A DNA stretch of 64,000 nt. Source: Kiritimatiellia bacterium. GTDB taxonomy: Bacteria > Verrucomicrobiota > Kiritimatiellia > RFP12 > JBMNHG01. The stretch covers positions 417,167-481,166 of the forward strand of contig JBMNHG010000006.1 of assembly GCA_050950285.1 (NCBI GenBank). The letters run 5' to 3'. Below the pieces are notes generated by a model, which saw only the letters and a list, made by a program, of their open reading frames with translations, was not told the origin of the DNA and made no database searches. Of the stretch, positions 17,441 to 63,012 are shown piece after piece (position 1 is the stretch's first letter; every line of letters begins with the position of its first letter). The translations under genes were made by a program, and so were the position numbers.

Positions 17441-18091
17441 CTAGAGAAAGTGGAACGTCCCGAAGTTCCGGAAATCGTGGAAGTTCGCGCTGGTCGCCGT
17501 GTTCCAGGCCCAGTGCGAGGGCTCGCCGGAATCGTAGTCGATACGGTAGACGTTGGCGCGCCAGGTCGTGCCGGGGAGGGCCCGCTCGTTGCCGAGTCCC
17601 TGGAAGAGGGCGAAGGGGATGAAAAACTCCGCGCTCCAGCCGGAGATCGCGGCGCCGGAGGCCTTGGGGCCGCCGCGGACGGATGTCGCGTGGCGCGTGG
17701 CGCGCGGGCCTTCCCCATGCCAGGGAAGCCAGCCATGGAAGCGTCCCTTGTGGTTCGGCACGACGATGGGAAGTTCGTGGTCGAGGGGCGAGATCTCGTA
17801 CTCGAAATAGATGGTCTGGGCTTCGTCGGTCCAGAGAAAGACTTCGAAAACGTCCTCCGTGAAGAGGTCCAGGTTGTCGCCGTCGAGGGTGGCGGTGAGC
17901 CGCCGGTCCTCGCCGTCGCAAAGGAAATAGATGCCGCTGGGGGAATAGAGGGCCTTGAAGCGGGTGGGATAAGCGGCGGGCCCCTGGCCAACGCGGGAGA
18001 GAGGCTGCCATTCTACGGAGGACCAGGCGGAGGCGGAGCCGTCTCCGGTCACCTCGAAGTCATCCGCAAAGCTCACGTCGAGTTTTTTCAT
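17441..18091 (-). CDS. carbohydrate-binding family 9-like (DOMON-type) protein
   Basis: TRFKALYS, EDVFEVF, YFEYEISP, WSAEFFIPF, WRANVYRIDY, NFHDFRNFG. Confidence 0.8.
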   Translation of the reverse strand: MKKLDVSFADDFEVTGDGSASAWSSVEWQPLSRVGQGPAAYPTRFKALYSPSGIYFLCDGEDRRLTATLDGDNLDLFTEDVFEVFLWTDEAQTIYFEYEISPLDHELPIVVPNHKGRFHGWLPWHGEGPRATRHATSVRGGPKASGAAISGWSAEFFIPFALFQGLGNERALPGTTWRANVYRIDYDSGEPSHWAWNTATSANFHDFRNFGTFHFL

Positions 18092-18193
18092 AACAAGTCC
18101 TTGCCCAAGAGGGATGGCATGAGGATAGCGCATTTGCGGCGCGGACGCAACGGCGACGGGAAGGTGGCAAACAAATGACACAACAAATAATCC

Positions 18194-18240
18194 CCCGCCA
18201 GTCAGTAGCCAGTGCGTTGCGCTGGCTACTGACTGGCGGG
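18194..18240. terminator. perfect 19-bp-stem hairpin at the distal end of the RHS locus
   Basis: CCCGCCAGTCAGTAGCCAG-tgcgttgcg-CTGGCTACTGACTGGCGGG, ~30 nt after the last stop; followed by GGATTATTTGTTG on the minus strand. Confidence 0.65.
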
Positions 18241-18271
18241 ACATATAAGGCAAGCGATTCCAAACATAACA

Positions 18272-19210
18272 CTATCGTGTCCACGTCCGCAACACAGCAT
18301 TCGTCGTCATTAGGATCCGTTCGTTCCGGGGGGAGAACTGGAGTCGCAGCCTAACTTGCTCTTCCGCCCCATCACCATCTACGACTACAGGCACGGCAAA
18401 GTAAAATGACTGCAAAGGATCATTGGACCATCCAGGCCATTCGACGGTTCGATGCTTTTTGGCGGTATTTCTAAGAGAGCCCGTCTGAACGTCTTCGATT
18501 GCCACTTGAATAAATCCTGGCTCGCCAAGATTCAAATAACCGCTCATTTCATATTCATGTTCATCGGAACCAACTTGTTTTACGGTTACGCCATGCACAG
18601 GAAAAGACGCGACAGCGGATGCCTGCGTAATGATGGAGCCGTCGTCAATCAATTGCTTTTCCGCCATCTTCCTTCCGTTTGCGACCAACGCGAACATGTC
18701 GGCGAGAACATTTAGAGCATGGGCGGTTGCATCACGTTGCTCCTTGCGAGACACCTCAAAGACCTCGACCCAAAGATCATCTCCGAGCGAGAGAAGAAGC
18801 CGCGAGGAATAGAGGCCAATGTTGTCGCGAACTTGATCGCGGTTGACACTGACAGTGATGCTCTCGTCTTTGGCTTGCACGAGGGTGACGTTACCGGACT
18901 TCAACCAAGCCGGACTTCCTCGAGTATATGCTGAAAAACGAACCCTGACGATGCAGTGCAGATAGGGATCTGCGCCCATTGAATGAGGAAGAATAGTGTT
19001 CTGATCACGAGGGGTCGCGACGATCGCACCGACGTCATCCAACACACGCCAAGCTCGGGATGAACAGAAGAACCAAAAGAGATCATCGCGGGACTGCGGC
19101 GACATTCTGTGAGCAGACAAGATGGCCTTCGGCACAGTGACTGGAGTCTCGCCACCAAAAGCGGTGGGCGCAAGGAGAGACAGCAACAAACCAAGAACGG
19201 CGATGCGCAT
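18272..19210 (-). CDS. exported protein, putative immunity protein for the orphan RHS toxin
   Basis: MRIAVLGLLLSLLAPTAFG signal peptide, GGAGG RBS, starts 3 nt after the toxin stop, low GC. Confidence 0.7.
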   Translation of the reverse strand: MRIAVLGLLLSLLAPTAFGGETPVTVPKAILSAHRMSPQSRDDLFWFFCSSRAWRVLDDVGAIVATPRDQNTILPHSMGADPYLHCIVRVRFSAYTRGSPAWLKSGNVTLVQAKDESITVSVNRDQVRDNIGLYSSRLLLSLGDDLWVEVFEVSRKEQRDATAHALNVLADMFALVANGRKMAEKQLIDDGSIITQASAVASFPVHGVTVKQVGSDEHEYEMSGYLNLGEPGFIQVAIEDVQTGSLRNTAKKHRTVEWPGWSNDPLQSFYFAVPVVVDGDGAEEQVRLRLQFSPRNERILMTTNAVLRTWTR

Positions 19211-19212
19211 TA

Positions 19213-21359
19213 TTATCTTCCTCCAGAAGAAGATCTTGTATTGCAAGGACAGTTGACTTTGACAAACCCGTGCCAATTGCCGTTCTCCTCAAACGGTTTT
19301 GCTCCATGATACCCCTCGACAAGGAGTGCCCATGCATCGGGTATCGTTGTGCCTGCGACTGTGGCAACCAGACCATCGTGCCAATCGTACGTGTCGTGGA
19401 ACTCCCAGTTTCCCATGAACTTGCAGTGTGCCTTTCGATTGCAGTTATAGGTGCCCGTGAAGGTGATCTTGAACCCGCCGAAAGCGTGATAGTAAACACC
19501 TTGAGTTGCCCGAAGGTTCAATGCCGAACCGCTTAACGATCCGGAGGCTCCGGCTGTCGGATTCGGCACAAGCGCACAAAGCTGTGACTCCAACTGATCC
19601 TTGGGCGATGAGCCCGCCGGCTCATCGTAGAGCATTGCTCCATTGACATGACGAGACGGGATCGTAAACGGGTCTTCCGGGGCACCTTCGAGCCAGTTTT
19701 GCATAAGGCTGGCAGCCAACGGTTCTAAGAACTCACCGCCCCAAGCAATGTTGCGGTAAAGAAGTAAAGCCTCGTCAGCCGCCACTTCTTCGGCACCAGC
19801 TTCCAAATATGCCCGAATCCGTGCGGCACGAACATCGAGGGGCGTATCGCCAAATGTGTCGAAGTACTTGACGGAATTGTTCCAGCAAAATCCGTATAGG
19901 TTGTCGCCCCCTCGTTCCCCAATCGGATCCCGGTTCAGCCACCGCATCAACTCGGGGGCGTAGAACCGGTAGCCGTAGTAGTAGAGACCGGTTTCGGCAT
20001 CGTAATATTTCGTGCTGAAGCGGTGGCGGAAGGCGTCGGCTAGAGATCCGGTTGCCGCGATGGTGCGGCCGAAGGCGTCGTAGGTATATTCCGCCACGAT
20101 TGCGCCCTGTTCGTTCACATAGGCCGTGATATTCCCGGTGTTATCGTAGAACGGGAAGTACCACGCGCCGTTGATCGAGACGGCCAACAGTCCGCCGATG
20201 CCGCCCGCGCCCTGGAGCGTGCCGGATAGGTCTTTGCCCCAGACGTAGTGGTTGGTGGTCACTCCCGCGGCGGTAGCGACGATTTCGAGAACCGGCAGCC
20301 AGCCGTCATAAACAAATCCCCGTGTCTCCGCGCCTCCGCGTGAGATTTTCAACACGCGGCGGCTAAGATGATCGTAGGCGTTGGAGACGACGCACAGGCC
20401 GTTGGAATAGGCGGCGACAAGGCGGTTTTCCGCATCATACGTGTAGTTGAAACGCCCGTCCCACGTCATATTGCCGTCTAAATCGTATACGGGAGAAATT
20501 TGGACAGGATTGACATGATTGACATGATTGGAAATCAGAAAATATTGGTTCAGTTCGTTGGCGGTGTAGATGTTCGTGACGGAGTTAAGCGAGGCCCACA
20601 GCGCGTTGCCTATGTTGTCGAAGGCGTAGCGGTTGGTGTGGGCGGGCTGGATGATGGCGGATGTGACTTCGGAACGGGCGTTGTAATCGAAGGTGTCCGT
20701 GTTGCGTGCAGTGACACGGTTAAGCAGGTCGTAGGTGTAGGCCAGCGGATTGTACGGCACGCCGCTGGCGCTGTTGGTGATGGCTTTTACCAGACTGCGG
20801 CGGCAGGGGTCGCGGGTCAGGTTGCGGGCAAGCACGACGCCATTCGTCAAGTTCACCGAATACCCCGCATCCCAGCCGTCGGAGGTGTAGGCGTAGGTGG
20901 CGCGGAAGGCGGTGTTGGAGACGGCGGAGTGCCGGTTCTCGGCATCGTAGCCGTATTGAACGGTGGCGCATCCTCGACGCGCAGTTCCGCCAGGCGGTGG
21001 CGGTGGTCCAGGGTGCGGGCCAGGGTCGCGGTGTCGCCGCCAACCATGGCCGTCTCGTTGGTGGCGGTGCCGAGGTGGCTGTTCTGGTAGGCGTATCGCG
21101 CGACGGCGTTGGAGGCGGAAGCAGGGCGCTGGAAGAGGTCGTATCCAAGCGAGACGGCAGGAGTGGCGTCGGAGTACGAGACGCCTGTCAACAGCCCGTC
21201 GGGGTTGTAGGCGTAGGCGGTGGCGAGGCCGCGCGCCCAGGTACGGGCGGCAAGCCTGCCGTCGGGGTTGTACGCGTAGGAGACGGCGGAGCCGTCGACG
21301 TAGACCTTGTTGGCAACAAATCCGGCGGCAGGATTGCAGACCCAGAGAATGACGCTCAT
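19213..21359 (-). CDS. orphan RHS module (partial core plus alternative C-terminal toxin); frameshift near 20970
   Basis: ~1.4 kb near-copy of the 3' core of the main rhs gene; FSTKYYDAETGLYYYGYRFYAPELMRWLNRDPIGE..NLYGF..DTFG, then a unique ~210-aa tip. Confidence 0.85.
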
Positions 21360-21419
21360 CGCAGAACTGTTGCGTAAGATTTCAAGGCAAATTTTGTAAG
21401 TCTCGGTGAAAAGGTCATG

Positions 21420-21830
21420 TCAATTTTTACGCATGTATTCCAGGAACGGTTGAACGTCCTCATGAAATGTTTTCATGACAACCGGTTCGGTGAATTCCTG
21501 AAGCTTCAGGTGAATCGACGTTCCACATATCATGGCGCCTTCGCCAGCTTCATTGCCATCGAAGATGATGCGGGAACCCTCAATGGCGTACCGATAGAGC
21601 TTTGTCTTTTTGTATTCGAATTCACCGAACGATGAAATTATGCAAACTGCCGTTCCATCGGAAACCAAGGTTAGCCAAACGCGAACCGGATGCCCGTCCA
21701 GCAAGGTTTCGTTGCTTGAAATCCACTGCCTTGGACGAGGATCGTAAGTAACTTCAGGAGCGCTTTGACATCCGGCAAATGCAATTAGAAACGCCCCCAT
21801 AATTGCTGCCGATAGGAATCGAATGTTCAT
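21420..21830 (-). CDS. lipoprotein, putative immunity protein
   Basis: MNIRFLSAAIMGAFLIAFAG|C lipobox; GGAGG RBS; low GC. Confidence 0.72.
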   Translation of the reverse strand: MNIRFLSAAIMGAFLIAFAGCQSAPEVTYDPRPRQWISSNETLLDGHPVRVWLTLVSDGTAVCIISSFGEFEYKKTKLYRYAIEGSRIIFDGNEAGEGAMICGTSIHLKLQEFTEPVVMKTFHEDVQPFLEYMRKN

Positions 21831-21859
21831 ACCCATTGCCTCCATGAAACATTTGTGAT

Positions 21860-22261
21860 TTAGTAATCCTCAGACCATCCCCAATAAAGAGCCGTGTAAA
21901 CAATCTCAGGTCGTAAGTATATAAATTCCACACGGGCATCTGGTTTTTCTTCCGTAGGGACATGATAAACGAGTGCGTTTTCCTTATTTTCGTATCGCAT
22001 TCCCTTCCCAAGCAACGCCTGAACTCCACCAAAGGTTAAATCTTTCTCTCGAGTCTTAAACAGGTAGGTGTTGATCATGTCCCCACATTGAACGGCAGCC
22101 TCTTGGCGTTCAACCCAATTGGTCGTCGTGCGGAAGACAAGACAGGATTGCAAAAACGTGTCGTTCGCAACCAGCTCACACGGCGGGTTGTTGTTTGTCT
22201 GCTGGAGCGAACAGCATCCAGCCAAGAAAATCGCAGCAAGCATCATCTGAAACAGTTTCAT
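21860..22261 (-). CDS. lipoprotein, putative cognate immunity protein of the main RHS toxin
   Basis: MKLFQMMLAAIFLAG|C lipobox; AAGGAG RBS just after the toxin stop; low GC. Confidence 0.75.
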   Translation of the reverse strand: MKLFQMMLAAIFLAGCCSLQQTNNNPPCELVANDTFLQSCLVFRTTTNWVERQEAAVQCGDMINTYLFKTREKDLTFGGVQALLGKGMRYENKENALVYHVPTEEKPDARVEFIYLRPEIVYTALYWGWSEDY

Positions 22262-22277
22262 CAAACTCTCCTTTTCA

Positions 22278-25200
22278 TCATGGTAGAATGAACTCATAAG
22301 CTCCGGACATCGTTTGGGCAGGCGTCCTCATGCGATATCCGTTGGCTTTGTACCAATTGATTGTCCCATTGTTTGAATACTCCACATTCTTGTCTTGTGT
22401 TTGCCTGCGGCATTCCTTCAGCAGCCGGTTGACCTCGCGTCTGTCCGAATCTTTGAGCTTGCCGGGGAACTTCTCGGCTATCGCCTTGTCGAAACAGGGC
22501 TTGGTGTACTCCCAAAATGCTTTGGCATGCCCTATTTCGTGAGCAATGACTTCGCCTTCCGGCGGAGGAGAACGGTCCAAAGAGCCGGATCCCCCGCCAG
22601 CTAATGCCCCGTTTAAGTTGTAATGTGGTTGATAACTATAAACAACGCCACGTCTTCCTGTCTTTGGAAGTCCCTTTGAAATGATAATGCTTATCCACAT
22701 TCGTATTTCGCACTCGCCTTCGATCACAGGCACTCGGTCAAGCGGGTAGTCAAAAACACCCCATGCGCCACGTGTGTCACCATATTCTATAGGGATATCG
22801 CTGACATTTTTGATCTCGGCTTGGACAAAAGAGCCCGCTCCCTTCATTTTCTGCCATATAGTTGTATTTCCTCGTTTGAAATATTTGACGTATGCGTGAC
22901 CCAAGGCATCCCGCCCATTTATCCCATCGTTGCCGCAGAAACCGTATAAATTCACCCCGCCGTCTTCCTCAATAGGATCCCTGTTCAGCCAGCGCATCAG
23001 TTCCGGCGCGTAGAAGCGGTAGCCGTAGTAGTAGAGGCCGATCTCGGCATCGTAGTACTTCGTGCTGAAGCGATGGCGGAAGGTGTCGGCCAGTTGGCCG
23101 GACTTGGCGATGGTGCGGCCGAAGGCATCGTAGGTATATTCCGCCACGATTGCGCCCTGTTCGTTCACATAGGCCGTGATGTTGCCGTTGTTGTCGTAGA
23201 ACGGGAAGTACCATGCGCCGCCTTGTCTGACGGCCAACAGTCCGCCGATGCCGCCCGCGCCTTGCATGCTTCCAGACAAATCGCGTCCCCAGACGTAGTG
23301 GTTGGTGGTCACTCCCGCGGCGGTAGCGACGATTTCGAGAACCGGCAGCCAGCCGTCATAAACAAATCCCCGTGTCTCCGCGCCTCCGCGTGAGATTTTC
23401 AACACGCGGCGGCTAAGATGATCGTAGGCGTTGGAGACGACGCACAGGCCGTTGGAATAGGCGGCGACAAGGCGGTTTTCCGCATCATACGTGTAGTTGA
23501 AACGCCCGTCCCACGTCATATTGCCGTCTAAATCGTATACGGGAGAAATTTGGACAGGATTGACATGATTGACATGATTGGAAATCAGGAAATACTGGTT
23601 CAGTTCGTTGGCGGTGTAGATGTTCGTGACGGAGTTAAGCGAGGTCCACAGCGCGTTGCCTATGTTGTCGAAGGCGTAGCGGTTGGTGTGGGCGGGCTGG
23701 ATGATGGCCGCCGTGACCTCGCAGCGGGCGTTGTAGTCGAAGGTGTCGGCGTTTCGTGACGTGACGCGGTTAAGCAGGTCGTAGGTGTAGGCCAGCGGAT
23801 TGTACGGCACGCCGCTGACGCTGTTGGTGATGGCTTTTACCAGACTGCGGCGGTAGGGGTCGCGGGTCAGGTTGCGGGCAAGTACGACGCCATTCGTCAA
23901 GGCCACCGAATAGCCCGCATCCCAACCGTCGGAGGTGTAGGCGTAGGTGGCGCGGAAGGCGGTGTTGGAGACGGCGGAGTGCCGGTTCTCGGTGTCGTAG
24001 CCGTGGTGGACGGGGGCGGCATCGCTCGACGCGCAGTGCCGCCAGGCGGTGGCGGTGGTCCAGGGTGCGGGCCAGGGTCGCGGTGTCGCCGCCGACCGTG
24101 GCCGTCTCGTTGGTGGCGGTGCCGAGGTGGCTGTTCTGGTAGGCGTATCGCGCGACGGCGTTGGAGGCAAAGGCGGGGCGCTGGAAGGCATCGTACCCGA
24201 GCGCGGCGGCAGGAGTGGCGTCGGAGTACGAGACGCCTGTCAACAGGCCGTCGGGGTTGTAGGCATTCTCCTTCCACGCTCCGCGAGCCCATGCCGTGCG
24301 GAGCGGTTTGCCGTCGGGGGTGTAGGCGTAGGAAACGGCTGATCCGTCGGCGTAGACCTTGTTGGTGGCAAGCCCCGTGGCGTGGTCGTAGTTCCAGGCG
24401 GTGAGATCGAGGGACGCAGGGGACGCAAGGGATGCGAGGGACGCGCCTCCGGCAAGCTGGACGGCGAGGGCGGCGAAGCCGGCGGCGTTGCCTCGGGCGG
24501 TGGCGAGGGCGGCCATGCGGCCGGCGGCGTCGTACCCGTAGGCCACGGGATAGGTCGCGCCGGTGGCGGCAACCGGACGCCCGAGGGCGTCGTAGGTGTT
24601 GGTGACGGTGTTGCCGAGGGCGTCGGTGCGGGACGTTTCGCGGCCGAAGGCGTCGAAGGTTCTCGATCCTGTGACGTGCAGATCGTCGTCGTAATAATAA
24701 ATGCCGTAGTGGGTCTCGTTGTCGGACTCGTCGAGTCCCGACCAGCGGAAATGGGAATAGACGCCCGTTTCAGGGTCGCGCATTTCCGAGTATGCAACGC
24801 GCCCGAGCGGATCGAAATAGTTGTAAACGGTTTCGCGCAGCGTCTCGCGGCGAATTGGACGCCCGAACTTCGAGACGGTGGTGGATGGCGTCGCCGCATC
24901 GGTGGCGCGAACCATCGTCAGTTCGCAAGTCTGCGGGTTGTAGCTGCCCGATTCCGTCGTCGTCGAGCCGTTCGGGCCGGTGTTCACCGTGCGGCTCCGC
25001 AGGGCGTTGGAAAGCCCCGTCAACTGGCGGCGGGTCGTCGCGACGGCGTTGGTGACGCCCTCGCGCGACGTGCTGCGGACGTCCACCCGCCACCATGCCC
25101 CGGCGATGTTCTCGTAGCGGGTCTCAGACGCGGTCTTGACGCCGCTTTGGACGGTCGCCGCCATCTCGCCGCGCTCGTCGTAGAGGTAGGTCGTGGCGGG

Positions 25201-28200
25201 CTGACCGGTCGTTTCCGAGCGAACCAGGCGCGAGGTCGCGCCGTCGTAGGCGTTCGAGGTGACGAGCCAGGCGCCCGCAGTGCCGGGCCTCAGCGTCGCG
25301 ACCGTGCGCCCGAGGAAGTCGCTGTACGAAATTTGATTCGTGACCGCGTTCGGCGAATCGGACGCCTCGGTGACGGAGAAGGCGCGCCGCGTCCCGTCGG
25401 CGGCGTAGTCAATCCAGGAGGTTTCGCGCGTCCAGCCGCCGTCCCAGCTTCGGATGGCGATGGAACGCCCGTTCCGGTAGGCGATGTTCGTGCTCGCCAC
25501 GACGCAAACGTCGGGGTTCGCCGGCGAGAACGTCAGGCTGACGCTCTCCTCGCGGTCGGCGAACGACCGGCTCGTCGAGACCATGCGCACCCCGCGCCGG
25601 TCGACGTGGACGGCGTGGTCGCCGATGCCGTCGGGGTACGTCGTCGTTTCGGAAGCCGTGAAGCCAAGCGTCCCGCAATCGGGGGTGACGGCGTCCCCGG
25701 GCTCGCCGACCGCCGTCACGACGGTGTTGGTCTCCCTGCCGAGGGCGTCCATGAAATGCATGGTCGTGCGATGGCCGTATCCGTATCCGGGCAACTGGGC
25801 AAGCGACTCCTCTTCGGTGGCGTAATAGAGGTGGTCTTTGCCGGTCTCGGCGGAGCGGAGGGTCTTGAAGCCGTCGCGATCCTGCGTCCAGAGCAGGCGG
25901 CAGCAGGAGTAGGCGTTGGTGGAGGTGGAGCCGTCGGAGTAGAGCGTGGAACGGAGGCGGTTCTTGTCGTCGTAGAGGTGCGCCTGCCAGTCGAGCGTCT
26001 CACCGGTGGCGTGCAGGAGGGTGGCGGAGTAGAGCGTCGTGCCGTGCGCGGCGTCCTGGATGGTCAGGTCGGACGTATCGGACGGATTGGACCGATAGGA
26101 ACGCCGGGCGATGGTGCGGAGCGCGGTTCCAGAACCGCCGGGGGCGAAGGTGCGGGTGGCGGGGTCGTAGTCGCCGAGGGCGTAGTCGCAGGCGGTGGTC
26201 ACGCCGTCTTCGTCGGTGGATTCGAGCGGGCGGCCGCGCAGGAGCAGCGGGATGCCGGGGGCGTCGGCGTCGAAGCGGGTGGCGGTCGAGACGGCGTTGC
26301 CGGGGTCGTCGAAGGCGGCGGTCGGGGAGCAGGCGCGGATCGTCTTCACGGTCGCGAAGGCGCGGCCCACCGTGTCCGTGCCGACGGTATGGACGTGCCA
26401 GGTGCGTCCGATGCACGTCGCCGCGCCGTCGCGGACGAGGTGGCGCGACTCGGTGCGGACGGAATCGAGGGCGGCGGGCGGATTGGAATCGCCCGCCAGC
26501 GGCGCGTAGTCGGAGACGGTGGCGATGGCGGTGATGGTGGGGAAATCAGACAGATCGGTCAGATCGGTCGGATCGGACTGATCGACAAAATCCAGGGGTG
26601 CCGCCGAGCCGTCGAGCGGGTCGAGGCGGAGGATTTCGCGGCCCTCGGCGTCCCAGGCCTGGTAGCTCCACGGGCGCGACTCGCCCCAAACGAGGCGGGG
26701 GCGTCCGTTGCGGCGGGGGTGGGCGTCGTCCGTCCAGTAGGAGGCATGGTCTTCGACCAGGCCGGGCGCGCCGTCGGGCTCGAGGCCGAGCGTGGCGTGG
26801 TAGGTCTGGCGGAGCGTCGCGTCCTGCCCGCAGCCGAAGCGCCGGGACTCGGCGACGTCCCGCGAGAGGATCGCGCCGGCGGCGTCGCGCACGATGCGTT
26901 CTTCGCGGAGGACGCCGTGGGGGCCGTCGTCGAGCGTGTCGGTGCGGATCACCTGCTCGGAGGTCTGCGCGATGTTGTCGAAGCACGCCCACTCCCCATC
27001 CCCACGATATGAGTAGACGACGTCGCGCATGACGTTGTCCCGGCGGCTGATCTTCTTGAACGCGACTTGGCGCGGGCTCCCGCCGACGTTGGCGATCTCC
27101 CAGACGTGCTCCAGTTCGTCGCCGGCGGTCTTGCGGACGGCGATCCGGACGCCATGGGCGATCGGTTCGACGACGACGGTGCGGCCTCGGGCGTCGGAGC
27201 AGGCGATGGTGCGGGTTCCGCCGGCGGCGCTTTCGGCGACGGCGGCGTCGTCGCGGGCGAGCAGGTTGAAGGTGGCGGGCGCGACGAGCAGCGGCTCCGT
27301 CGCCCGGAACCAGAGGAAGCCGGAGACCTGGCCGTCGCGGGGGATGCCGAGGGGGATGCGGAAGGCGAGCGAGCCGAGGCCGTCGCCTTCGAGGCCGTCG
27401 CAGTCGCCGTCGGCGCATCCGGACGCGCAGTCGCCGCATTCGTCGTAGAAGGGGTCGTGGCATCTTTCGCCGACGCGGTGGATGGCCTCCCCGCTCCAGA
27501 CCGGCCTGCCGTCGAAGAAGATGGTGCCGGTGGCGCGAAGGCCGTCGTCTTCGACGGTTTCGTCGAAGTACGCGGCCAGCGCCGGGTCGCCGTAGCCGAT
27601 TTCGGCCCTGCAGTCGCACGGGTGGCCGCCCGTGGCATCCTGCCGCCAGCCCTCCCGGAGGCACCGGCTGTCGAGGGGGTAGTCGGAAGCGGGCTCGTAG
27701 TCGCCCGTCGCGGCGTCGAAGAAGAGCGTGGTCCCGCATCCGCCGTGGCGGCCGTCGCCGTAGGCGATGCGGGGATCGAAGAAGAGGAGGCGTTCGACCG
27801 GGCCTTCCCCGGGGTCGCCCCTGGCCGCCTGCGCCCCGGGCGCCCCGCCGCGCCGGGGGCGGCGCGGGGGCGATCGTGCATCCGGGCACGTCGTAGATGC
27901 CGGGCGCCTTCGCCGCGAGCGAGCCGCCCGTGAAGGCGTCGTTCGGCGTGAAGACGAGGCGGGCTTCGCCGGGGAACGGGTCGAGGAGCGCGGCCTGCTC
28001 CATCTCGGAGGGCGCGGCGCGGCAGGGGCGGTTGGAGAAGTCGTACCGGACGCCGACCGACGTCCCGCCGCCCGTCCATTCGACGGCCTGGCAGCGCGCG
28101 CCGTTGATTTCCGCCGCCGCCCCGGCGCCGCCCACGAGGACGCCCGGCGCCCAGGCCAGCAGGTACAGCGGCCTGGCGCAGGTCGAATTCGTCGAGGTGG

Positions 28201-29821
28201 CGCGGAGCCGCAGGGTGAGTTCCGCGGGGCCGTTCGTCGAGACGGGCAGCCAGAGGCTGTCGTCGGGCGGCGAGGCGGTCGCGGTGCCGCTTCCGCCTTC
28301 GGAGTCGGCCCACTCGAGCGCCATGCCGTCGAGCGACCAGCCTGCGGGCGCATTCGAGGAGGCGGAGAGGAAGTACTGCTGCCAGCCGCCGTCGCGGTCG
28401 ATCGTGAAGGTGCGCTCGTACACCCGGTTCGTGCCGCCGGCGGGGAGGTCGCACCGGAAGGCGTCGAAGAGCTTGAGGGAGGCGAGGTTCCAGGCGAGGT
28501 TCGTCGGAGCGGAAGCCTCCGCGAAGGGGTCCATGCCCGCGGCGATCTTCGTCGAGAGCGGGAAGCCGGTTCCGCCGGGGTCGAAGGCGAGGCTGTCCAC
28601 CGCGTTGGTGCCGCCGAACTTCGCCGTCTCGTAGGCGTCGGGGATGCCGTCGCCGTCGAGGTCGTCGGGCGGCGTCGGGGACAGCGGGTCGGGGTCGGAG
28701 CCGTCGACGAGCCCGTCGCCGTCGGTGTCGCGGAGCAGCGGACTCGTTCCGGCGGCGACTTCGGCGCCGTCCAAAACGCCGTCGAGGTCGGTGTCGGGCA
28801 GGCGGGGGTCGGTGCCGTGGACCATCACCTCGTCGCAGGTGGAGAGCCCGTCGCCGTCGTGGTCGGCGACGTCCGGGTCGAGCATGCCGAAGGCGCGCCA
28901 GTGGAGTTCGAGGCCGTGGACGAGGACGCCCGTGCCGCCGAAGGCGAAGGTCTCGCCGCCGCCGCCGTGCTGGGCGCCGACGACCCAGTTGGTGGCCGGC
29001 AGCGCGTTGGTGGCGGACAGCCGGGACAGGTCGTAGCGGTAGACGAAGTCGCCGGAGGGGAAGAGTTCGGCCTGGAAGGTGACAGGGAGGCCGGCGTCGC
29101 GGCCGGCGAAGACGTCCTGCCAGGCGAGCAGCAGGCTGTTGGAGGCGGTCGGGGCGTGCCAGAAGCGTCCGGCCGGCGGGACGATGCCGAGGGAGGTCTG
29201 CAGGGGGGCGAGGAAGTCGAGGCCCGAGCCGTCGGGCATCCGGCGGGCGCGGGGCGAGCCCTTGGGCCAACCGAAGGAGAGCGTTCCGCTGCTGGAGACG
29301 TGCAGCCCCCCGACGCGGTTGGTGCCGAGGGTGAAGGACCAGTTGGTGGCGGGGAGCCAGAAGGTGTCCTCGGCCACCCCGTAGCGGGTCCAGGGGGCGT
29401 GGACGACGGCGTTCGACGGGACGGAGGCCAGCGCGGGAGACGGGTTGGTGGCGACGCGCGCGAGCGCGAAGCCGGCCCGGTACTGGCCGGCGGTCAGGCG
29501 GGGGCCGGAGGAGGGGCCGCGCGCGGGCCGCGCCGGGAGGCCGCCGGAGACCATGCCCGCCGGGGGAGGGCCGTGAAACAGGGCGTTGCCGCCGGGCGGC
29601 ACCTTCGGGACGCCGTGCAGGGTGGCGACCACCAGGAGGGCGGAGAGCACCGCCCTGACGGAGGGCGAAAGCGAGCGGAACCGGTCGCCGAGAGCGCGGA
29701 AGAGGCGGCGCAGGCCGGGCGACGTCCCGGCCCAGGCGCCGAGGCAGAAGAGCAGCGGCACGCCGGCCAGCAGGCAGGCGCCCGCGAACATCCAATGGCG
29801 TATCGACTGCAGGAGTCCCAT
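22278..29821 (-). CDS. giant RHS/YD-repeat polymorphic toxin (~2500 aa): N-terminal TM segments, TSP3-like repeats, HEXXH tip; frameshifts near 27860 and 24025
   Basis: Three overlapping ORFs (26546..29821, 23770..28353, 22278..24191) join into one protein; DHDGDGL/DTDLDG/DTDGDGL/DLDGDGI repeats; YD repeats; RHS core RWLNRDPIEEDGGVNLYGF..DALG; tip VIAHEIGHA. Confidence 0.85.
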
Positions 29822-29943
29822 GGCTCTACCTCGGAAGGATCACGGCGCCGCGGCGGCACAGGCGGCGACGGCCCGGAGAAAAACGGCGCGCCGCCGGAAC
29901 CGCGGCCCAAGGGAGGAAATGCAACCTGCATCCATGGTGGGGA

Positions 29944-29971
29944 GCGTAGCACGGGCCAACGCCGGCGGCAA
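29944..29971 (-). promoter_or_regulatory. sigma70-type promoter for rhs
   Basis: TTGCCG-N17-TACGCT with extended -10 TG on the minus strand; coordinates approximate. Confidence 0.45.
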
Positions 29972-29989
29972 CCCTTGATTTCCTTTCCC

Positions 29990-30064
29990 GAGGCCCTTGC
30001 GAAACCGAGCCGGACGACACGGAGGTCGTCCCTCCATCCAGCCCGCCGGGGACGGCGGTCCCCA
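29990..30064 (-). repeat. second copy of the REP/MITE-like element
   Basis: Reverse complement of 30012-30064 matches 5589-5641 at 49/53 positions; the adjacent GGTTTCGCAAGGGCCTC resembles the right end of copy 1. Confidence 0.7.
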
Positions 30065-30348
30065 TCCAGCCCGCCCGCCACGTCGTTGCCCGAGGCAAGC
30101 CGGTCGGCGAAATGTCCGGCAAGGGCCGCGCGCCGCCCTGGGCGCGGAGTCTGGAGACGGGGGGGTGCGCCGACACCGCCAGCGGGATGATGGACGACGC
30201 GAAGACCAGGAGACCAAGCGAACGGGGGTTTCCAACCATCCCTCTCTCCTCTTTGCCATGCACGGGCACGTGCGTCCCGCCGACCGGCGATGCGGGGACC
30301 CCGGGCGGCAGACGGACGCGCACTTCGCCTTCATGCTGGAACACGGGG

Positions 30349-31266
30349 CTAGCCGCCCCAGGCCTTCCGCACAAGGGCGAGACCTGCCGCGAGAGGTTCG
30401 GGGTCGACGACCGGACCCGGCTCGAAGACCTTCAGGATGGACGGAGCCGCGAGAGCGCGCAGGGAATCGAAGTCAACGCCCATCCCCTGTCCTGGCGCCA
30501 GATGGTCGGCATCCAGCCCGAAGACGTCGTGGATGTGGCAGCCGACAATCGAAGGCAAGATGCCCTCCACCCACTCCACATGGTTGCCGATGCCGAGGTT
30601 CTCGCGAACCTGCCCATGGCCGATGTCATGCCAATAGCGCAACGACGGCGTCGGGAATTCCTGCAAGAGGGACGCCGTCTCCGTCTCGTCCGGAATCCCC
30701 TCCCAGTACGGAAGGTTTTCGATGGCGAGAATCACGCCCGCACGATCGAACAGGGGAAGCAACTCCGAGAGGGAACGGCGAAGCGGGTCGAGATGGCGCG
30801 CCGCCCGATCGCGGCGCTGGCGCAGCAGGCGGTCGAGGAAAAAGCGCTGGAACCTGCCGGGTTCGTTTCCGGAACGCCGGAGCTCCCCCATGCGGCTGGT
30901 CAGATTCCCCATCGTGACGTGCCCCGCATGGCAGATGACAACCGAGGCGCCCAGTTCCACCGCCGCATTCAAGGTCGAAGCCGCCGCCGAACAGGCCTTC
31001 TGTCGATTCTCCTCGTCCGGAGACGTCATGGAAAAGGGTTCGGGCGACGGCACAATCCCCTCGAAGGGGAAGGGGCATGGCGAATGGAGGCTGCACACGC
31101 GGACGCGGCCGGCCGACACAAGCCGATGGATGTCCCGATACTGCGCTTCCGTGAGGCGATAGCTCAACTCCAGCGCGGTGAAGCCCAGCGAAAGGGCCTC
31201 CTCCGCAATCGCATCGCCTGCGTCGTGCCGTGCGGAATTCCAGTTGGTGGAAAGTGCAAATTCCAT
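30349..31266 (-). CDS. sugar phosphate isomerase/epimerase (xylose isomerase-like TIM barrel)
   Basis: SLHSP, VICHAG, LAIEN, YWHDIGH, HIHD, DHLAPGQG, VFE. Confidence 0.85.
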   Translation of the reverse strand: MEFALSTNWNSARHDAGDAIAEEALSLGFTALELSYRLTEAQYRDIHRLVSAGRVRVCSLHSPCPFPFEGIVPSPEPFSMTSPDEENRQKACSAAASTLNAAVELGASVVICHAGHVTMGNLTSRMGELRRSGNEPGRFQRFFLDRLLRQRRDRAARHLDPLRRSLSELLPLFDRAGVILAIENLPYWEGIPDETETASLLQEFPTPSLRYWHDIGHGQVRENLGIGNHVEWVEGILPSIVGCHIHDVFGLDADHLAPGQGMGVDFDSLRALAAPSILKVFEPGPVVDPEPLAAGLALVRKAWGG

Positions 31267-31663: not shown

Positions 31664-34600
31664 CTACCTCAGCAGGAAGAGGGTTCCGACATCCATCGGC
31701 ACGCCCCAGAAGCGGAGGAAGTAGTTGCCGTAGTGGCCGCCATCGACCTTCAGGTGATAGCCGACGGTCGGAGTGCCGACGAGCTGTTGCCAGCCGTCGT
31801 ATGGCGTAGCGGTGGATGCCGTGGCGAAGGTCGTCCACGCGGATTCCTGCGTCCAGTCCGCCGCTTCCTTTTCGGGGGCGATGTAGACGGTCGCGCCGTT
31901 CGAGCGCTGCATGATCCAAAATGCTCCCTCGATGCGGGAGTAGAGTTCGGCGCGGGTGATCTTGTAGCGCTTGCGGAGCGCGGCCGCAGTGGGCATTCGC
32001 GTGTCGGAGGTGGTCAGGAAATTGCCGTCGCCGAAGAAGGTGTGGTGCCATGCCATGGGTCCGCAATGCGCCGGGTTCTCGGCGTACCAGCTGTTGACGC
32101 CCGGCGTCATCGCCTCGACCTGCGCAACGGTGATCGGGATGAGGATTTCGTTGTTCGGGGTGAAGAAGTGCGGTGCGCCGAGGAATGCGCCGGCAGGCGT
32201 CTCGACCAGCAGTCGCGCCACATTCAGTCCGGCAGCAGCGGCGGGCGGGATGGTCGTGGAGAACGAGGTGCCGGCCGCGCGGTCGCCGAGGTCGATGGAG
32301 ACAATGCCCTGCGCATTGGTCCAGTCCGCTGGAGAAGCTCCGAGATTGGATGTGGCGCAGAGTGCGCGGACGCGCGCGGTGCCGCTGAACGAGCCGTTCG
32401 CGGCGAGCGTCGCGGAGAGCCGGATGCCCGCGGGCGAGCGCGAGGCTTCGACTTCGTTCGCGATCGCGGGATGGGCCTGTCCGGAAGCGATCGTGTAGAA
32501 ACGCAGGTCGCGGATGCGCGATGCGAGCAGGGTGCCGCTTGTGAGGTTGAAGAAGCGGACATAGCGTGCGGCGCGCGGTTCGGCGAGATCGAAGAGCGCC
32601 TGCTCGCTTTGCGGGACATCGGCGAACGTGGCGAGCGTTTCCCAGTTGAATCCGTCGTTCGAGCCCTGGAGGATGAGGCCGCCGAGATTGCCGAGGTTTT
32701 CGGGATCGACGCGCATCGTGATACGGTCGATGCGCACGGGGCGGCCGAGATCAAGCGCCGCATAGGAGATGGTCGTGAGCGTGGAGGCGTCGTTGTCGAA
32801 GGCGAGCCATGCGTTCGAGCGCTGGTCGCCGGTATAGGTTGTCGGATAGAATCCGAGGATGGAATCGGCGTTTTCGACGAGCGGGCGGATTTCGACACAG
32901 TCGCGGATCATGAGGGTCTTCACCGCGGAGGCGGCGGTCTTGCCCTCGACAGACGCGAAGACGCGGATGTATATCTTTCCTCCGCTGGCGCCATCCAGGG
33001 CAACGCTTCCGGTAAATGTCTCGCCCGCGAGGGCGGCACCAACCGCAGCGACGGTTCCGTTCGTCTGCCATGCGGCGAGGTCTTCGCCGAGATCCGACGC
33101 GGCATAGGCGGCGTAGAAGGTCACGTTCGAGGTGGCGAAGGAACCTTCGAGCGATGCGCTGCCGGAAAGCTGGAGGGCGGAGGACGTGGCGGAGTCGATC
33201 GAGAAATCATTGACGATCACGACCGACACGGGGCCGGCGTAGACCTGGAATTCCGAGATGCTGCCCCACTGGACGCCGTTCCACTTGACGTAGCGGAAGA
33301 GGTTGTCGCCGGTGCAGACGCCATCGCCCGATGGCCAGGGGATCCATGCCCCGGCGGGCTGTGTCCCATTGTAGTCGTTCGGGACCGTGTAGAGGAGGGT
33401 CCAGTCCACATTGTCCTTCGAGGCGGAGAACGTCGCGCCGCGCATGCGGTCGGCGAGGCCCGTGCGGTCGTAGAACTTGAGGCGGGCGATGGGGTAGAGC
33501 GCCTTCAAGTCCAGCGTGAGGCGCGACGCGGAGTCGCCGCCGGTTTCGTTCGTCTGGTCGAGGATGCCGTCGAAGGCGCGCATGTACTGCGCCTGGGTGG
33601 TGTCGGCATCGACCACGTTCGCCGCGGCGACGGGGAAGAGCGTGTAGTCGTTCGGGATGACGACCTTTGCGGGGGTTGCCTTGGAGAGATCGCCAGCGGT
33701 CGCGAAGAGACGCACCACAGCGGGCATGCCGGCGCCGAGGTGGTTCGCGATCGCGGTGACGGGGACGCCCGACGTGGCGGTACCGAGGGCCGTGACGACG
33801 CCGCCGGAACGCCAGTCGTCAAGATCCGTGCCGAGGTCGGACGATGCCGCCGCGCAGGAGAGCGCGCATCCCGATCCGGCGATTGGGCCGTACATCCGGA
33901 CGAGGCCCGTAACGGTGAGGTTTGTCGAGGAATAGTCGTCGATCGCGAGCGCGACGGATGAAAGCGACGAGGAGTCCACATGGATTTCAACCTCGTCCAT
34001 GCTGCCCCATTGGATGTTCTCCCAGCGGACGTAGCGGTATGTTTCGTCCGGCGGCGGGAACCAGTACGTCGGGTTGCAGGCATTGGGGTCGTAGGCGTAC
34101 TCGAGAGGCACGGTGTATGCCACGGTCCAGTTTTCGTTGTCGTTCGAGACCTTGAAGCTGCGGCCGATGAGGCGGTCGTCAAGGCCGGGGCGGCCGTGGA
34201 AGAGGAGGCGGGTGATGTGGAAGGGTTCTCCGAGATCGATCGTCGCGTAGGACACGGTGTCGTTGTTGTTGAAGATCCCGTCGAAGCACAGGAGCGCCGC
34301 GTTGATTGAGGGCGTGTCGATAATATTGCCTGCCTCGACGTTGAAGAGGCGTTCGTGGGTCTTATAGTCGTATGGCGTGATTTCCTTCACGGAATCGGAT
34401 GCGTTGGTGATGCCGGCGGCCGTGGCGAAAAGGCGGACGAAGTACTTCTGGTTCGCGGCGGGAACGGGTATGTCGCCGGAGACGGCGATGCCGTCGGAAG
34501 CGGTGCCGAGCGTGGCGACAGTGCCGTTCGCGACCCAATCGGCAAGGTCGTCGCCAAGGTCCGATGCGGCCATTGCGACCTTGAATGCGATCGTTTGTCC

Positions 34601-35152
34601 GGCGGCATCGCCGAAGGTCTGGCCCGATGCGGAGACGGCAATCGTGGAGGCGGAGTAATCGGTGAGTTTGAACGACTCGACTTGCACGGACGTGCTATCG
34701 ACCCACACTTGGAATTCATCCATGCTGCCCGCGCCGACATTGGTCCAGCGGACATAGCGGTATGTTTCGCCGGGATCGAACGCGCACGGAATCTGCGCGA
34801 AGTTTTCGTCGGCCGTGAAGTCGTCCGGCACCTGGTAGACAAGCGTCCAGTTCTGGGCGTCGTTCGAGACATGGAACTGTGCGCCGCGCATGCGGGTGCT
34901 CACGACATCGTTGTCGCTGCGGCCATGGAAGAACATCTTCGTGATGTGCATCGGCTCGCGAAGGTCGACGACGGCGTAGCTGGAGGAGTCGTTGTCATCG
35001 AAGACGCCGTTGAACGCGCGCATCACGGTGGCCATTTGGTATACGGCGATGTTGTTCGCCACGACCGGGTAGAGGCGTTCGGCGGCGTGTGCTGCGCCGA
35101 TTCCCCCAAATACCGTTGCGATTGCCAGTGCGATAGCCGGTGTCTTGCGCAT
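31664..35152 (-). CDS. large secreted/surface protein with ~5 repeated discoidin (F5/8-type C)-like modules and a C-terminal GTLFLLR tail
   Basis: Signal peptide MRKTPAIALAIATVFGGIGAAHA; repeated AFDG..DL..SND..NWT..YRYVRW units alternating with beta-sandwich spacers. Confidence 0.8.
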   Translation of the reverse strand: MRKTPAIALAIATVFGGIGAAHAAERLYPVVANNIAVYQMATVMRAFNGVFDDNDSSSYAVVDLREPMHITKMFFHGRSDNDVVSTRMRGAQFHVSNDAQNWTLVYQVPDDFTADENFAQIPCAFDPGETYRYVRWTNVGAGSMDEFQVWVDSTSVQVESFKLTDYSASTIAVSASGQTFGDAAGQTIAFKVAMAASDLGDDLADWVANGTVATLGTASDGIAVSGDIPVPAANQKYFVRLFATAAGITNASDSVKEITPYDYKTHERLFNVEAGNIIDTPSINAALLCFDGIFNNNDTVSYATIDLGEPFHITRLLFHGRPGLDDRLIGRSFKVSNDNENWTVAYTVPLEYAYDPNACNPTYWFPPPDETYRYVRWENIQWGSMDEVEIHVDSSSLSSVALAIDDYSSTNLTVTGLVRMYGPIAGSGCALSCAAASSDLGTDLDDWRSGGVVTALGTATSGVPVTAIANHLGAGMPAVVRLFATAGDLSKATPAKVVIPNDYTLFPVAAANVVDADTTQAQYMRAFDGILDQTNETGGDSASRLTLDLKALYPIARLKFYDRTGLADRMRGATFSASKDNVDWTLLYTVPNDYNGTQPAGAWIPWPSGDGVCTGDNLFRYVKWNGVQWGSISEFQVYAGPVSVVIVNDFSIDSATSSALQLSGSASLEGSFATSNVTFYAAYAASDLGEDLAAWQTNGTVAAVGAALAGETFTGSVALDGASGGKIYIRVFASVEGKTAASAVKTLMIRDCVEIRPLVENADSILGFYPTTYTGDQRSNAWLAFDNDASTLTTISYAALDLGRPVRIDRITMRVDPENLGNLGGLILQGSNDGFNWETLATFADVPQSEQALFDLAEPRAARYVRFFNLTSGTLLASRIRDLRFYTIASGQAHPAIANEVEASRSPAGIRLSATLAANGSFSGTARVRALCATSNLGASPADWTNAQGIVSIDLGDRAAGTSFSTTIPPAAAAGLNVARLLVETPAGAFLGAPHFFTPNNEILIPITVAQVEAMTPGVNSWYAENPAHCGPMAWHHTFFGDGNFLTTSDTRMPTAAALRKRYKITRAELYSRIEGAFWIMQRSNGATVYIAPEKEAADWTQESAWTTFATASTATPYDGWQQLVGTPTVGYHLKVDGGHYGNYFLRFWGVPMDVGTLFLLR

Positions 35153-62400: not shown

Positions 62401-62658
62401 ATTGGTGACGGCCGGATGTTTTGCCTCGACATAGCCGATGATCTTGTCGGTGCCGTTCCACAGGCGGAAATCCGGGTTCCCGGCGTCGGTGGCCTTCGGC
62501 AGCATGGTGACGCGGACGGGTTTGCGCCCCGTCTCTTCCGCCACCGCCGCCAGCATGCCGGAGAGCGCGGGATAGAAGCTTTCCTCGCGCGCATCGCCCT
62601 GCTGCGCGACGGCGTGCAGCTCGTTGAGGTATGCGGTGAAACGCGCGTCGTCGGTCAT
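59476..62658 (-). CDS. single-chain restriction-modification enzyme (PD-(D/E)xK nuclease, N6-adenine MTase, type ISP-like specificity domain)
   Basis: GNPDF..IGYVEAK; GVYYTPEPVV; LDPAAGT; ILGNPPY; DDYVKF; YRPFD; IGGYQVCDKWLKDR. No helicase motifs seen. Confidence 0.88.
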   Translation of the reverse strand: MTDDARFTAYLNELHAVAQQGDAREESFYPALSGMLAAVAEETGRKPVRVTMLPKATDAGNPDFRLWNGTDKIIGYVEAKHPAVTNLDAIEDSEQLARYRETFPNLILTNFFEFRLYRNGERVQAVLAARPFVLTRLYTVPPMERPDELRELLDRFLGFSLPKVFTAESLAVELAKRTRFLRDVVARQLAQEKEAPGVLAGFFEAFRTYLIGTLEREEFADLFAQTITYGLFAARIRSGDAFNRRSAFDSIPHMIGVLRDMFRFISLGDLPGQLAWCVDDIAEVLAVADAPGILDRYYHEGKGSDPIVHFYETFLAQYDPAERERRGVYYTPEPVVGYIVRSLHHILKADFGRRDGLASEGVTLLDPAAGTMTFIARAAALAVAEFEAKYGQGGRADFIRQHILKNFYAFELMMAPYAVGHLKMSFFLEELGHRLGDDERMPFYLTNTLDTEELEKSLLPGFSALAEESRLAGEVKKQTPILVILGNPPYSGHSTNTGEWIRGLIETYKQVDGKPLGEKNPKWLQDDYVKFLRFAQWKIEQAGCGVVGMITNHSYLDNPTFRGMRQSLMQTFDDIRVLDLHGNALKKETCPDGSPDTNVFDIRQGVAIAFFIKRGEKTKAHGTVRHADLYGSRGSKYAWLEKHDARTTRWRKVTPRAGSYLFIPRDESSLRMYERFPSIPGIFPVSSVGIVTARDNLTIQWTAEDVWRTVNLFARSEPELARRSYRLGKDARDWKVTLAQEDIRDSGPDRDKVVPILYRPFDVRHTYYTGRSRGFLCMPRQEVMQHMLAGENLALIAPRQHKDEFGVFVTTNIGTHKSVAAYDINYYFPLYLYPEPKQPAKSKTGVVRHVPMMLFEPKEFYGARQPNLDAALVDALAEAHGQAPTPEAIFHYVYAVLHAPAYRTKYAEFLKMDYPRIPFTSDAKLFKQLSALGGKLVGLHLLKSPDLDPPACRFEGKGDNRVEKERTTGLRYAADKERVYINATQYFAPVPEAVWTYPIGGYQVCDKWLKDRRERRLELDDIRTYCRIATALGRTIALQEEVDAVYPEAEKTTIPFTPTA

Positions 62659-62858
62659 CACGGCACATCCTTTCGCGGAGCCTCGCCGGATTTCGGAGTG
62701 GCCAGGGCAGTCCCGACGAGGGAGGCCACCCCGTTTGGGATGCTGGCATCCTCTTCCGCCACCCTCGCGCGCAGACGCTTGTGCGTCCCGGGCTTGAGGC
62801 GGATATGGATCGGCCTGGTCTCTTTCTGCGAATCCGGTCGCGTTTGTTTCGCGGTCAT
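62658..62858 (-). CDS. small ribbon-helix-helix-like DNA-binding protein
   Basis: RPIHIRLKPGTHKRLRARVAEEDASI..VASLV; AGGAG RBS; stop overlaps the RM start. Confidence 0.65.
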   Translation of the reverse strand: MTAKQTRPDSQKETRPIHIRLKPGTHKRLRARVAEEDASIPNGVASLVGTALATPKSGEAPRKDVP

Positions 62859-62887
62859 GCGGCTCTCCTGACGATAGCGCAGGTCGA

Positions 62888-62916
62888 ATCGTAGCCTCGC
62901 CAAAGCCCGGCGTCAA
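62888..62916 (-). promoter_or_regulatory. sigma70 promoter of the RHH-RM pair
   Basis: TTGACG-N17-TACGAT. Confidence 0.6.
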
Positions 62917-63012
62917 GCGCCGCGCCGTTTCGCCAATCGCCGTGTATAAGCCTCGCAGGGGACAGGCATGCTTCGCCGCCACACGAGCCCCACGGGAGGG
63001 GCGGAGATGGCG

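Follow-up and report, generated by a model that had tools for sequence, protein, structure and literature searches.

Introduction

The RHS/YD polymorphic toxins, represented by Type VI secretion system (T6SS) Rhs proteins, WapA, and Tc-C, are described as combining YD repeats and a TIGR03696 core with a DPxG motif, a variable tip, downstream immunity, and orphan C-terminal cassettes (Zhang et al., 2012; PMC3482391). In the present study, we analyzed a locus sharing these traits in the window, namely, the whole stretch of 64,000 nucleotides at G000:C6:417167-481166 (G000 denotes this Kiritimatiellia genome, 4.05 Mb and 99.35% complete; C2, C3, C5, C6, C11, and C12 are its contigs; other G-numbers are other genomes, and L-numbers are loci). 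Its main gene (29821 to 22278, minus strand) encodes an RHS protein headed by a leader of two hydrophobic helices, and, by its architecture, the locus is one of an RHS polymorphic toxin and not of a T6SS Rhs. We propose that it belongs to a system of antibacterial polymorphic toxins of one order within the Kiritimatiellia; in this system, an exported protein, here termed U, precedes the leader-bearing toxin, exported immunity proteins, and orphan cassettes. We put the probability of this reading, with its export and tip-action steps, at approximately 0.6. That a toxin system with a new leader is involved appears highly probable from the sequences.

The family represented in the window differs from the described RHS/YD toxins in that it has no PAAR, VgrG, WXG/LXG, SpvB/TcdB, or two-partner secretion leader, its leader is also found on non-RHS toxins, no nuclease tip was found, and a tagged partner is encoded upstream. 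No leader of this kind appears in the table that Zhang et al. (PMC3482391) give on trafficking. Bacterial teneurin-like proteins (PMC13018210) are similar in being Sec-targeted, surface-associated YD shells with a toxin tip, an immunity gene, and no obvious delivery machine; however, they are held by a lipoprotein or S-layer anchor, whereas the leader of the window family is a two-helix hairpin. Their hallmarks before the YD shell are an FN-plug, an NHL propeller, and a TIP superfold; the main gene gave no match to NHL and a marginal one to teneurin (E 0.014). The accessible part of that source does not mention the present toxin class, and describes as an open question the way in which RHS shells that lack an injection device get to their targets.

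The TANFOR toxins of Bacteroidetes (PMC7073777), for which largely nuclease tips, a proposed Type IX secretion system (T9SS) route, and a hypothesized two-step export have been reported, also carry a lineage-restricted N-terminal marker on large Sec-exported polymorphic toxins without a C-terminal secretion signal of their own, the signal being carried by neighboring genes. The window family differs in its envelope-enzyme tips, exported immunity, and one fixed family of tagged partners, as predicted below. The TANFOR domain gave no match in Pfam and NCBIfam scans, the presence of its model in those libraries being unconfirmed. In the LXG toxins of the Type VIIb secretion system, the small co-encoded partners Lap1 and Lap2 bind a conserved N-terminal domain and provide a motif needed for export (PMC9600955). 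The logic of U and its cargo, as judged from gene linkage and tag distribution, may resemble this arrangement; however, the Lap partners are helical, WXG-like, and assembled in the cytoplasm of Firmicutes, whereas U is predicted to be a Sec-exported beta-sandwich in a diderm. The family is apparently undescribed: the literature searched contained no account of it, though supplements of the papers cited could list members, and PMC12057145, the only paper found in which "Kiritimatiell" and "Rhs" are both mentioned, concerns another lineage of the Planctomycetes-Verrucomicrobia-Chlamydiae group.

The leader module and its distribution

The leader hairpin (29600..29821, minus strand, as are all features of the locus given below) consists of hydrophobic helix 1, a basic amphipathic loop, and hydrophobic helix 2, followed by HGVPK. 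In the model of a 97%-identical paralogue (predicted local distance difference test [pLDDT] 74.8), helices at residues 2-33 and 53-69 enclose a further helix at 35-49, the Pro/Gly linker at 70-104 is disordered, and a beta domain is predicted at approximately 118-310, in agreement with the initial annotation, which had placed two hydrophobic segments, a Pro/Gly linker, and a beta domain at the N-terminus. The sequence ATLxGxxK, offered there as the family start, proved to be strain-specific; the family counterpart of HGVPK is G[GS][ST]K, or [YVA]G[GS][ST]K in its fuller form. The conserved beta domain, termed NB (28877..29500; amino acids [aa] approximately 108-315), has a weak supersandwich-like fold and belongs to no Pfam or NCBIfam family. 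It is followed by four Ca-binding TSP3-type repeats (28628..28864; aa 320, 343, 365, and 387; Pfam TSP3_bac, 27.3 bits); the number expected from the initial annotation was correct, but only three are strictly of the DxDGDG type named there and one is DxDLDG. TSP3_bac was also the sole Pfam family found on family members, in 36 of 40.

Pfam and NCBIfam scans revealed no delivery family on the leader, and the N-terminal 440 aa had no Foldseek match at E<=0.001; the best structural match (Z 6.3, root-mean-square deviation [rmsd] 4.0 over 154 residues) lies in the common range and therefore neither names a fold nor shows newness. The lack of any delivery family on it supports a lineage-specific leader; a lineage-specific delivery route had initially been envisaged. 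Searches of PDB sequences with the U and NB profiles returned nothing useful, and a profile search against all proteins was swamped by TSP3-repeat proteins because its alignment contained the repeats. Of 38 leaders examined, three with a single hydrophobic peak and one miscalled were dropped; among the 34 others, in which two peaks were called cleanly, K+R exceeded D+E in the loop of 33. A basic loop stays cytoplasmic under the positive-inside rule, so that the bulk of the protein would be periplasmic, and the small residues and G[GS][ST]K after helix 2 look like a peptidase site.

The leader is not RHS-specific, a point that goes beyond the initial annotation, as do its coupling to an upstream exported U, the frameshifts of the window copy, and the extension of the locus to 29935-29826. 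Seventeen close copies of the leader (one at 40-50% identity, the rest high) and one divergent locus are present in G000; the close copies head 12 RHS proteins and four non-RHS proteins (three intact, 1192-1438 aa), the last being cut by a contig end. Three non-RHS copies share aa 1-381 with the RHS paralogues at 92-94% and diverge within the TSP3 repeats, so that the leader, NB, and the repeats form an exchangeable module. In relatives, the leader likewise heads RHS proteins of approximately 2300-2550 aa and non-RHS proteins of approximately 900-1700 aa, and an NB profile built without the repeats matched 89 of 151 genomes of the order. Relatives of the window genes come from metagenome-assembled genomes of Kiritimatiellia, Kiritimatiellae, or Lentisphaerae, and the metagenome runs containing the stretch from digesters, bioreactors, and landfills.

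Shell, variable tips, and candidate immunity proteins

The main gene spans 2513 codons and a stop, close to the approximately 2500 aa initially given, and is read in three frames because of single-base frameshifts near 27822 and 24024. A Cys-rich segment (27400..27740) lies directly after the first frameshift and before the YD shell, as the initial annotation had it, and all nine of its Cys occur in the N-terminal 141 aa encoded by the second frame. The YD/RHS shell and RHS core (22899..27400, start approximate) enclose the second frameshift; PF05593, TIGR01643, and TIGR03696 scored above cut-off on the shell (78 bits for TIGR03696). The DPxG self-cleavage motif of the core reads RDPIEEDGG...DALG with both core aspartates present, and the best PDB matches were confined to the core region (7q97, E 5e-15). 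As already remarked in the initial annotation, PAAR, VgrG, WXG, and the C-terminal domain (CTD) of the T9SS had no match on the pieces of the main gene.

Tip 1 (22278..22898; 206 aa) is a putative zinc metallopeptidase with HEIGH at 22541, and HExGH is retained in seven of seven non-identical homologues, all at protein C-termini. It is followed by two putative immunity lipoproteins, the first of 133 aa (21860..22261; lipobox LAGC; overlapping the toxin stop and present as an identical copy on C5) and the second of 136 aa (21420..21830; lipobox FAGC), an orphan RHS C-terminal module without a leader (19849..21359; frameshift near 20961) ending in the colicin M-like tip 2 (19213..19848; 211 aa; DTYDWH at 19395), and putative immunity protein 3 (18272..19210; 312 aa) with a Sec-type signal. 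Export signals on three downstream partners had been predicted and were present, although the third partner follows the orphan module and not the main gene. The G+C content decreases from approximately 0.7 in the RHS body to approximately 0.5 over the tips and partners.

Neither tip matched a Pfam family, and tip 1 also had no NCBIfam match. By Atlas, tip 2 scored 0.95 against a cluster of which 47% is Colicin_M, the two having 214 features in common, and a profile in which a true colicin M tip was also present gave a weak PDB match (E 0.039); a word-indexed search returned no distant homologue of it. The catalytic motif of colicin M is DXYDX5HR (PMC5821083), which is complete in tip L117 from a relative. 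Homologues of tip 2 (47%) and partner 3 (27%) adjoin again in G204, a member of another family, and weaker homologues of partner 3 also occur without tip 2. One of the partner-3 homologues (L138:395-2994, in G002) stands tail to tail with a sugar-isomerase gene with no tip beside it; the same sugar-isomerase gene flanks the window locus at 30349-31266.

The initial annotation of an RHS polymorphic toxin locus with variable C-termini is borne out genome-wide. In the whole genome, 49 tips with a length of 100 aa or more formed 29 clusters. The family arrays, taken as the 35 kb following a family start, account for 35 RHS modules and 21 tip clusters, with many different tips, candidate immunity genes downstream, and no single invariant C-terminus. 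Among 30 own-genome queries, Pfam scored Tle1 (131 bits), GDSL (49), and Tlde1 (38) above cut-off on family tips, and AMOP on one module outside the family arrays. Among 31 C-terminal fragments (28 from relatives and three own non-RHS), it scored colicin M (66 bits), PAD three times, and alpha/beta hydrolase twice, one of these under cut-off. No nuclease, deaminase-toxin, or ADP-ribosyltransferase family scored in either set, in which most tips are unnamed. Some tips also show patterns that we take to be HExxH, GxSxG, and caspase-like motifs.

The N-terminus encoded by the gene next to the tip was hydrophobic in 27/30 family modules (two of the three misses have a lipobox; five more modules had no usable next gene) and behind 29 of 30 full-length cargos, against a background of 618/2166 genome genes (29%) and 17% in shuffles. 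Three modules of another RHS family of G000 had non-hydrophobic partners, so that the measure can come out negative. A recurring tip keeps its partner family, as seen at four Tle1 loci and for tip 2 in G204. Cognate immunity genes are assigned by gene position and this pairing, and protection by them is putative. Together with the named tips (Tle1, GDSL, Tlde1, colicin M-like, and HExxH), these counts favor the suggestion in the initial annotation of an attack on the cell envelope with exported immunity.

C-termini of the PAD, GDSL, and alpha/beta hydrolase types do not by themselves identify a toxin, the toxicity of the tips is a prediction, and the TSP3 stretch weakly matches the cohesion proteins CglD and MtsD, far below cut-off. 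The same genes might therefore encode surface-tethered enzymes or adhesins (lipases, proteases, and deiminases) serving nutrition, the matrix, or cell-cell cohesion, with exported accessory proteins. We consider this very unlikely because an RHS core with hypervariable tips, orphan tip cassettes, and Tle1, Tlde1, and colicin M domains form a toxin-immunity signature, and the small downstream genes are tip-specific and in some cases duplicated.

Regarding other toxin-like loci of G000, RHS families with different signal-peptide leaders, which we presume to be transglutaminase-like, occur at C2:49-55 kb, C6:134-145 kb, and C2:936-950 kb, with partners lacking export signals at the first two. A second family comprises three exported TSP3-rich proteins of approximately 1900-2000 aa (C3:219657-225566, C3:668293-674190, and C11:258315-263930), the N-termini of which are 98% identical and behind which low-GC tip- and partner-like cassettes are found. 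The orphan-tip arrays L002, L008, L013, and L016 contain inserted 412-aa open reading frames (ORFs; nine copies), presumably reverse-transcriptase-like, and several types of insertion sequence (IS).

The upstream partner U, its tag, and the delivery route

U is intact at five of the 17 own loci (211-217 aa, ending just before the cargo start), partial at one, and reduced to remnants of 30-36 codons at 11. The window remnant (29826..29935) is a 31-codon ORF in which the start and part of the signal peptide are joined to the last codons; a blastn comparison with the intact U at C2:213 kb showed a deletion of approximately 544 bp at a CGGCGC microhomology, and the ATG-to-ATG distance is 114 nt in the window versus 658 nt at the intact locus. 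Three remnants are in frame and retain the tail. Similar collapse, arising independently, left an in-frame signal-plus-tail remnant in G016 and a truncated one in G004.

U carries a signal peptide, had 885 relatives among 8000 scored candidates, and belongs to no Pfam or NCBIfam family. Its model (pLDDT 77) adopts a fold resembling galectin/ConA (Z 9.5, rmsd 3.5 over 138 aligned residues), with a Foldseek match to SPRY at E 2.4e-4; the last strand is of low confidence. Across families, U lies directly upstream of the cargo start, mostly at -3 to +20 nt. Of 80 U loci in GTDB genomes, U was cut off in nine, and 54 retained 900 nt or more on the downstream side; among these 54, NB was next to U in 38, and three more had a broken or cut leader. 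The 151 genomes of the order comprised 83 with U and NB, five with U only, six with NB only, and 57 with neither. In a class-wide sample, U was present in 8/151 genomes, every one of them from this order or from a single further family.

Apparent fusions of U in long frames of G004 and G218 were rejected as overlapping non-coding frames. A divergent subfamily of U (L099, L105, L108, L111, and similar loci) stands alone, several times before one unrelated gene, with no cargo. At G000:C11:369211-372728 (minus strand), a divergent U-like gene with the tail HSILMIK precedes a 927-aa NB protein without the two-helix leader.

U ends in a tag of the form GT-hydrophobic-R, as do many large exported proteins of the genome. 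A relaxed pattern matched 88 of 2328 called proteins (nine expected), and the strict DNA pattern G-T-x4-R-stop gave 47 matches versus one for the control. A tag-like tail was present on 68/71 U proteins and 1/20 complete cargos. In genus g11, the tag, U, and NB were all found in 0/23. The type B CTD of the T9SS is a C-terminal strand ending in hydrophobic residues and Arg on Sec-exported proteins; the tag of U differs in its length of approximately seven residues. Two kb upstream of the locus, the window also encodes an exported protein of 1132 aa (31664-35062, minus strand) that contains three F5/8 type C domains, and its C-terminus GTLFLLR is the same tag as that on U.

The proposed system thus has the architecture exported partner U, then hairpin leader, NB, TSP3 repeats, an optional RHS shell, and a variable toxic tip, followed by exported immunity and orphan tip/immunity cassettes. 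The leader would enter the inner membrane with its basic loop cytoplasmic and the bulk of the protein periplasmic, and would probably be cut after helix 2. Since the variable C-terminus of the toxin cannot hold a tag, U, as a lectin-like jellyroll, would bind the NB/TSP3 module and supply it, acting in trans for loci such as that in the window. An outer-membrane machine would then export the complex of U and cargo, and the RHS core would cut off a tip that reaches only the surface or periplasm of a rival, which would explain both the envelope enzymes among the tips and the exported immunity. A role of U as the tag donor is tentative, at somewhat less than even odds. It is doubtful that the whole amounts to an undescribed outer-membrane export pathway that is addressed by a seven-residue C-terminal tag, is used by proxy through a shared lectin-fold adaptor U acting in trans, and delivers no further than the envelope of the rival.

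Concerning the machinery available, TssC, VgrG/Phage_GPD, and PAAR were not found in G000 with positive controls matching, which answers the question of a T6SS raised initially; with no PAAR or VgrG leader on the protein either, T6SS delivery was rejected. The T9SS markers PF11751 and PF14349 (PorP/SprF and SprA) had no match in the genome, but their controls were equally blank. Export-related genes comprise six secretins, 27 N-methyl pilin-type motifs, and three Omp85 proteins. At L005 (G000:C6:58795-61527), a secretin gene lies 3 kb upstream of an intact U with a non-RHS cargo, possibly by chance.

The galectin/ConA-like fold of U would also suit an accessory surface lectin for target recognition or adhesion that plays no part in export, with the same toxins remaining periplasmic or tethered and leaving the cell in vesicles, through lysis, or by way of a type II-like secretin recognizing NB in its folded state. 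The secretins and pilin motifs, the repeated deletion of U in cis, and its presence alone at some loci point in this direction, and release by vesicles or lysis would similarly account for targets confined to the periplasm. However, U is kept directly upstream of the cargo across families, five near-complete copies persist in G000, and the tag is a feature of U that the cargo almost never shows; we regard this alternative as unlikely. The recurrent loss of U in cis fits either a tag donor or an accessory lectin.

State and surroundings of the window copy

Both frameshifts of the main gene are private, being found in none of the 12 other long blastn matches of the genome, and four paralogues are intact ORFs of 2460-2541 aa. 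The window copy alone may be a decayed pseudogene kept as a store of tips and immunity genes, and not an assembly error; we hold this to be a fair question with the balance slightly against it, and the reading of the family is unaffected. Its two frameshifts and collapsed U agree with decay, as does the share of copies with frameshift-type indels in the first 4 kb, which is 7/17 in the family and 5/37 among other repeats (IS and retroelement) of the same assembly. On the other hand, the indels are private single bases of a kind that some IS copies also carry, and three of the four intact paralogues have the same U remnant. The extra base near 27823 is absent from contigs of three of four other runs and that near 24026 from one of four, but short-read contigs collapse paralogues and this comparison is thus not copy-specific. 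The unique parts 17500-19945 and 21309-23004 are present in two other runs with 0-3 differences. Relative to the single-copy flank, read depth is doubled over tip 1 and its partners, consistent with the identical copy on C5.

A promoter-like element, TTGCCG-17-TACGCT (29943..29971), precedes the ATG start of the U remnant by 7 nt, and each of its 16 near-identical genome copies is ahead of a family locus. A sigma-70 consensus scan did not call it; it is putatively a promoter, the transcript of which is possibly leaderless. Upstream, it is adjoined, here and in several paralogous loci, by a 75-bp repeat (29989-30064, minus strand) that resembles repetitive extragenic palindromic (REP) or miniature inverted-repeat transposable (MITE) elements, has dozens of partial copies genome-wide, and could help cassette mobility. 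Next, at 30065-30261 (minus strand), come fragments that match the 5' terminus of a G000:C3:383 kb gene at 92-95% identity and are also present at two paralogous loci; that gene is the first of an operon in which a different RHS gene comes last. An empty insertion site was sought in the congener G001, in which the flanking genes are on different contigs with other neighbors and no toxin locus. Further away, the window encodes a Type ISP restriction-modification enzyme (59476-62982, minus strand).

Discussion

The architecture, the exchange of tips, their pairing with immunity genes, the coupling of U to the leader, and the tag on U but not on the cargo can be read directly from the sequences, and a number of observations weigh against the toxin system proposed on this basis. 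Antibacterial toxicity is predicted from sequence, most tips are without any family match, and DTYD in tip 2 is followed by WHDGL-VA, i.e., without the HR of the colicin M motif. Export signals were judged by a hydrophobicity window and by eye for lipoboxes, not by SignalP; the partner of one family tip (C5:1756) has no signal, and hydrophobic partners also occur behind 7/8 modules of further RHS families of G000 (three C12 duplicates of family modules being set aside), which indicates that the trait is not unique to the hairpin leader.

Other points of this kind concern U. Its deletion in cis at 11/17 loci and its collapse in G016 and G004 indicate that no cis copy is required and that U may be dispensable, and approximately 12 of the 54 U loci have no adjoining cargo. 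The co-occurrence of U and NB is inflated by physical linkage and kinship. In genus g108, the strict GT-xxxx-R tag was found in 17/43 genomes and U in 32/43; many of these genomes have U and NB yet no strict tag. The strict pattern did not track U across the order, in which the tag consensus drifts.

The leader and U provide a marker for a polymorphic-toxin class that approximately 60% of the genomes sampled from this uncultured order of digesters and guts contain, and no T6SS marker was found in the one genome examined. This marker yields a catalogue of uncharacterized, putatively envelope-acting tips with matched immunity genes that may be tested in E. coli. The helper gene U beside the toxins hints at a delivery route that has not yet been described. 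Interbacterial conflict would thereby be linked to an undescribed C-terminal tag, and U, NB, and the tag may serve as a handle for finding the export machine.

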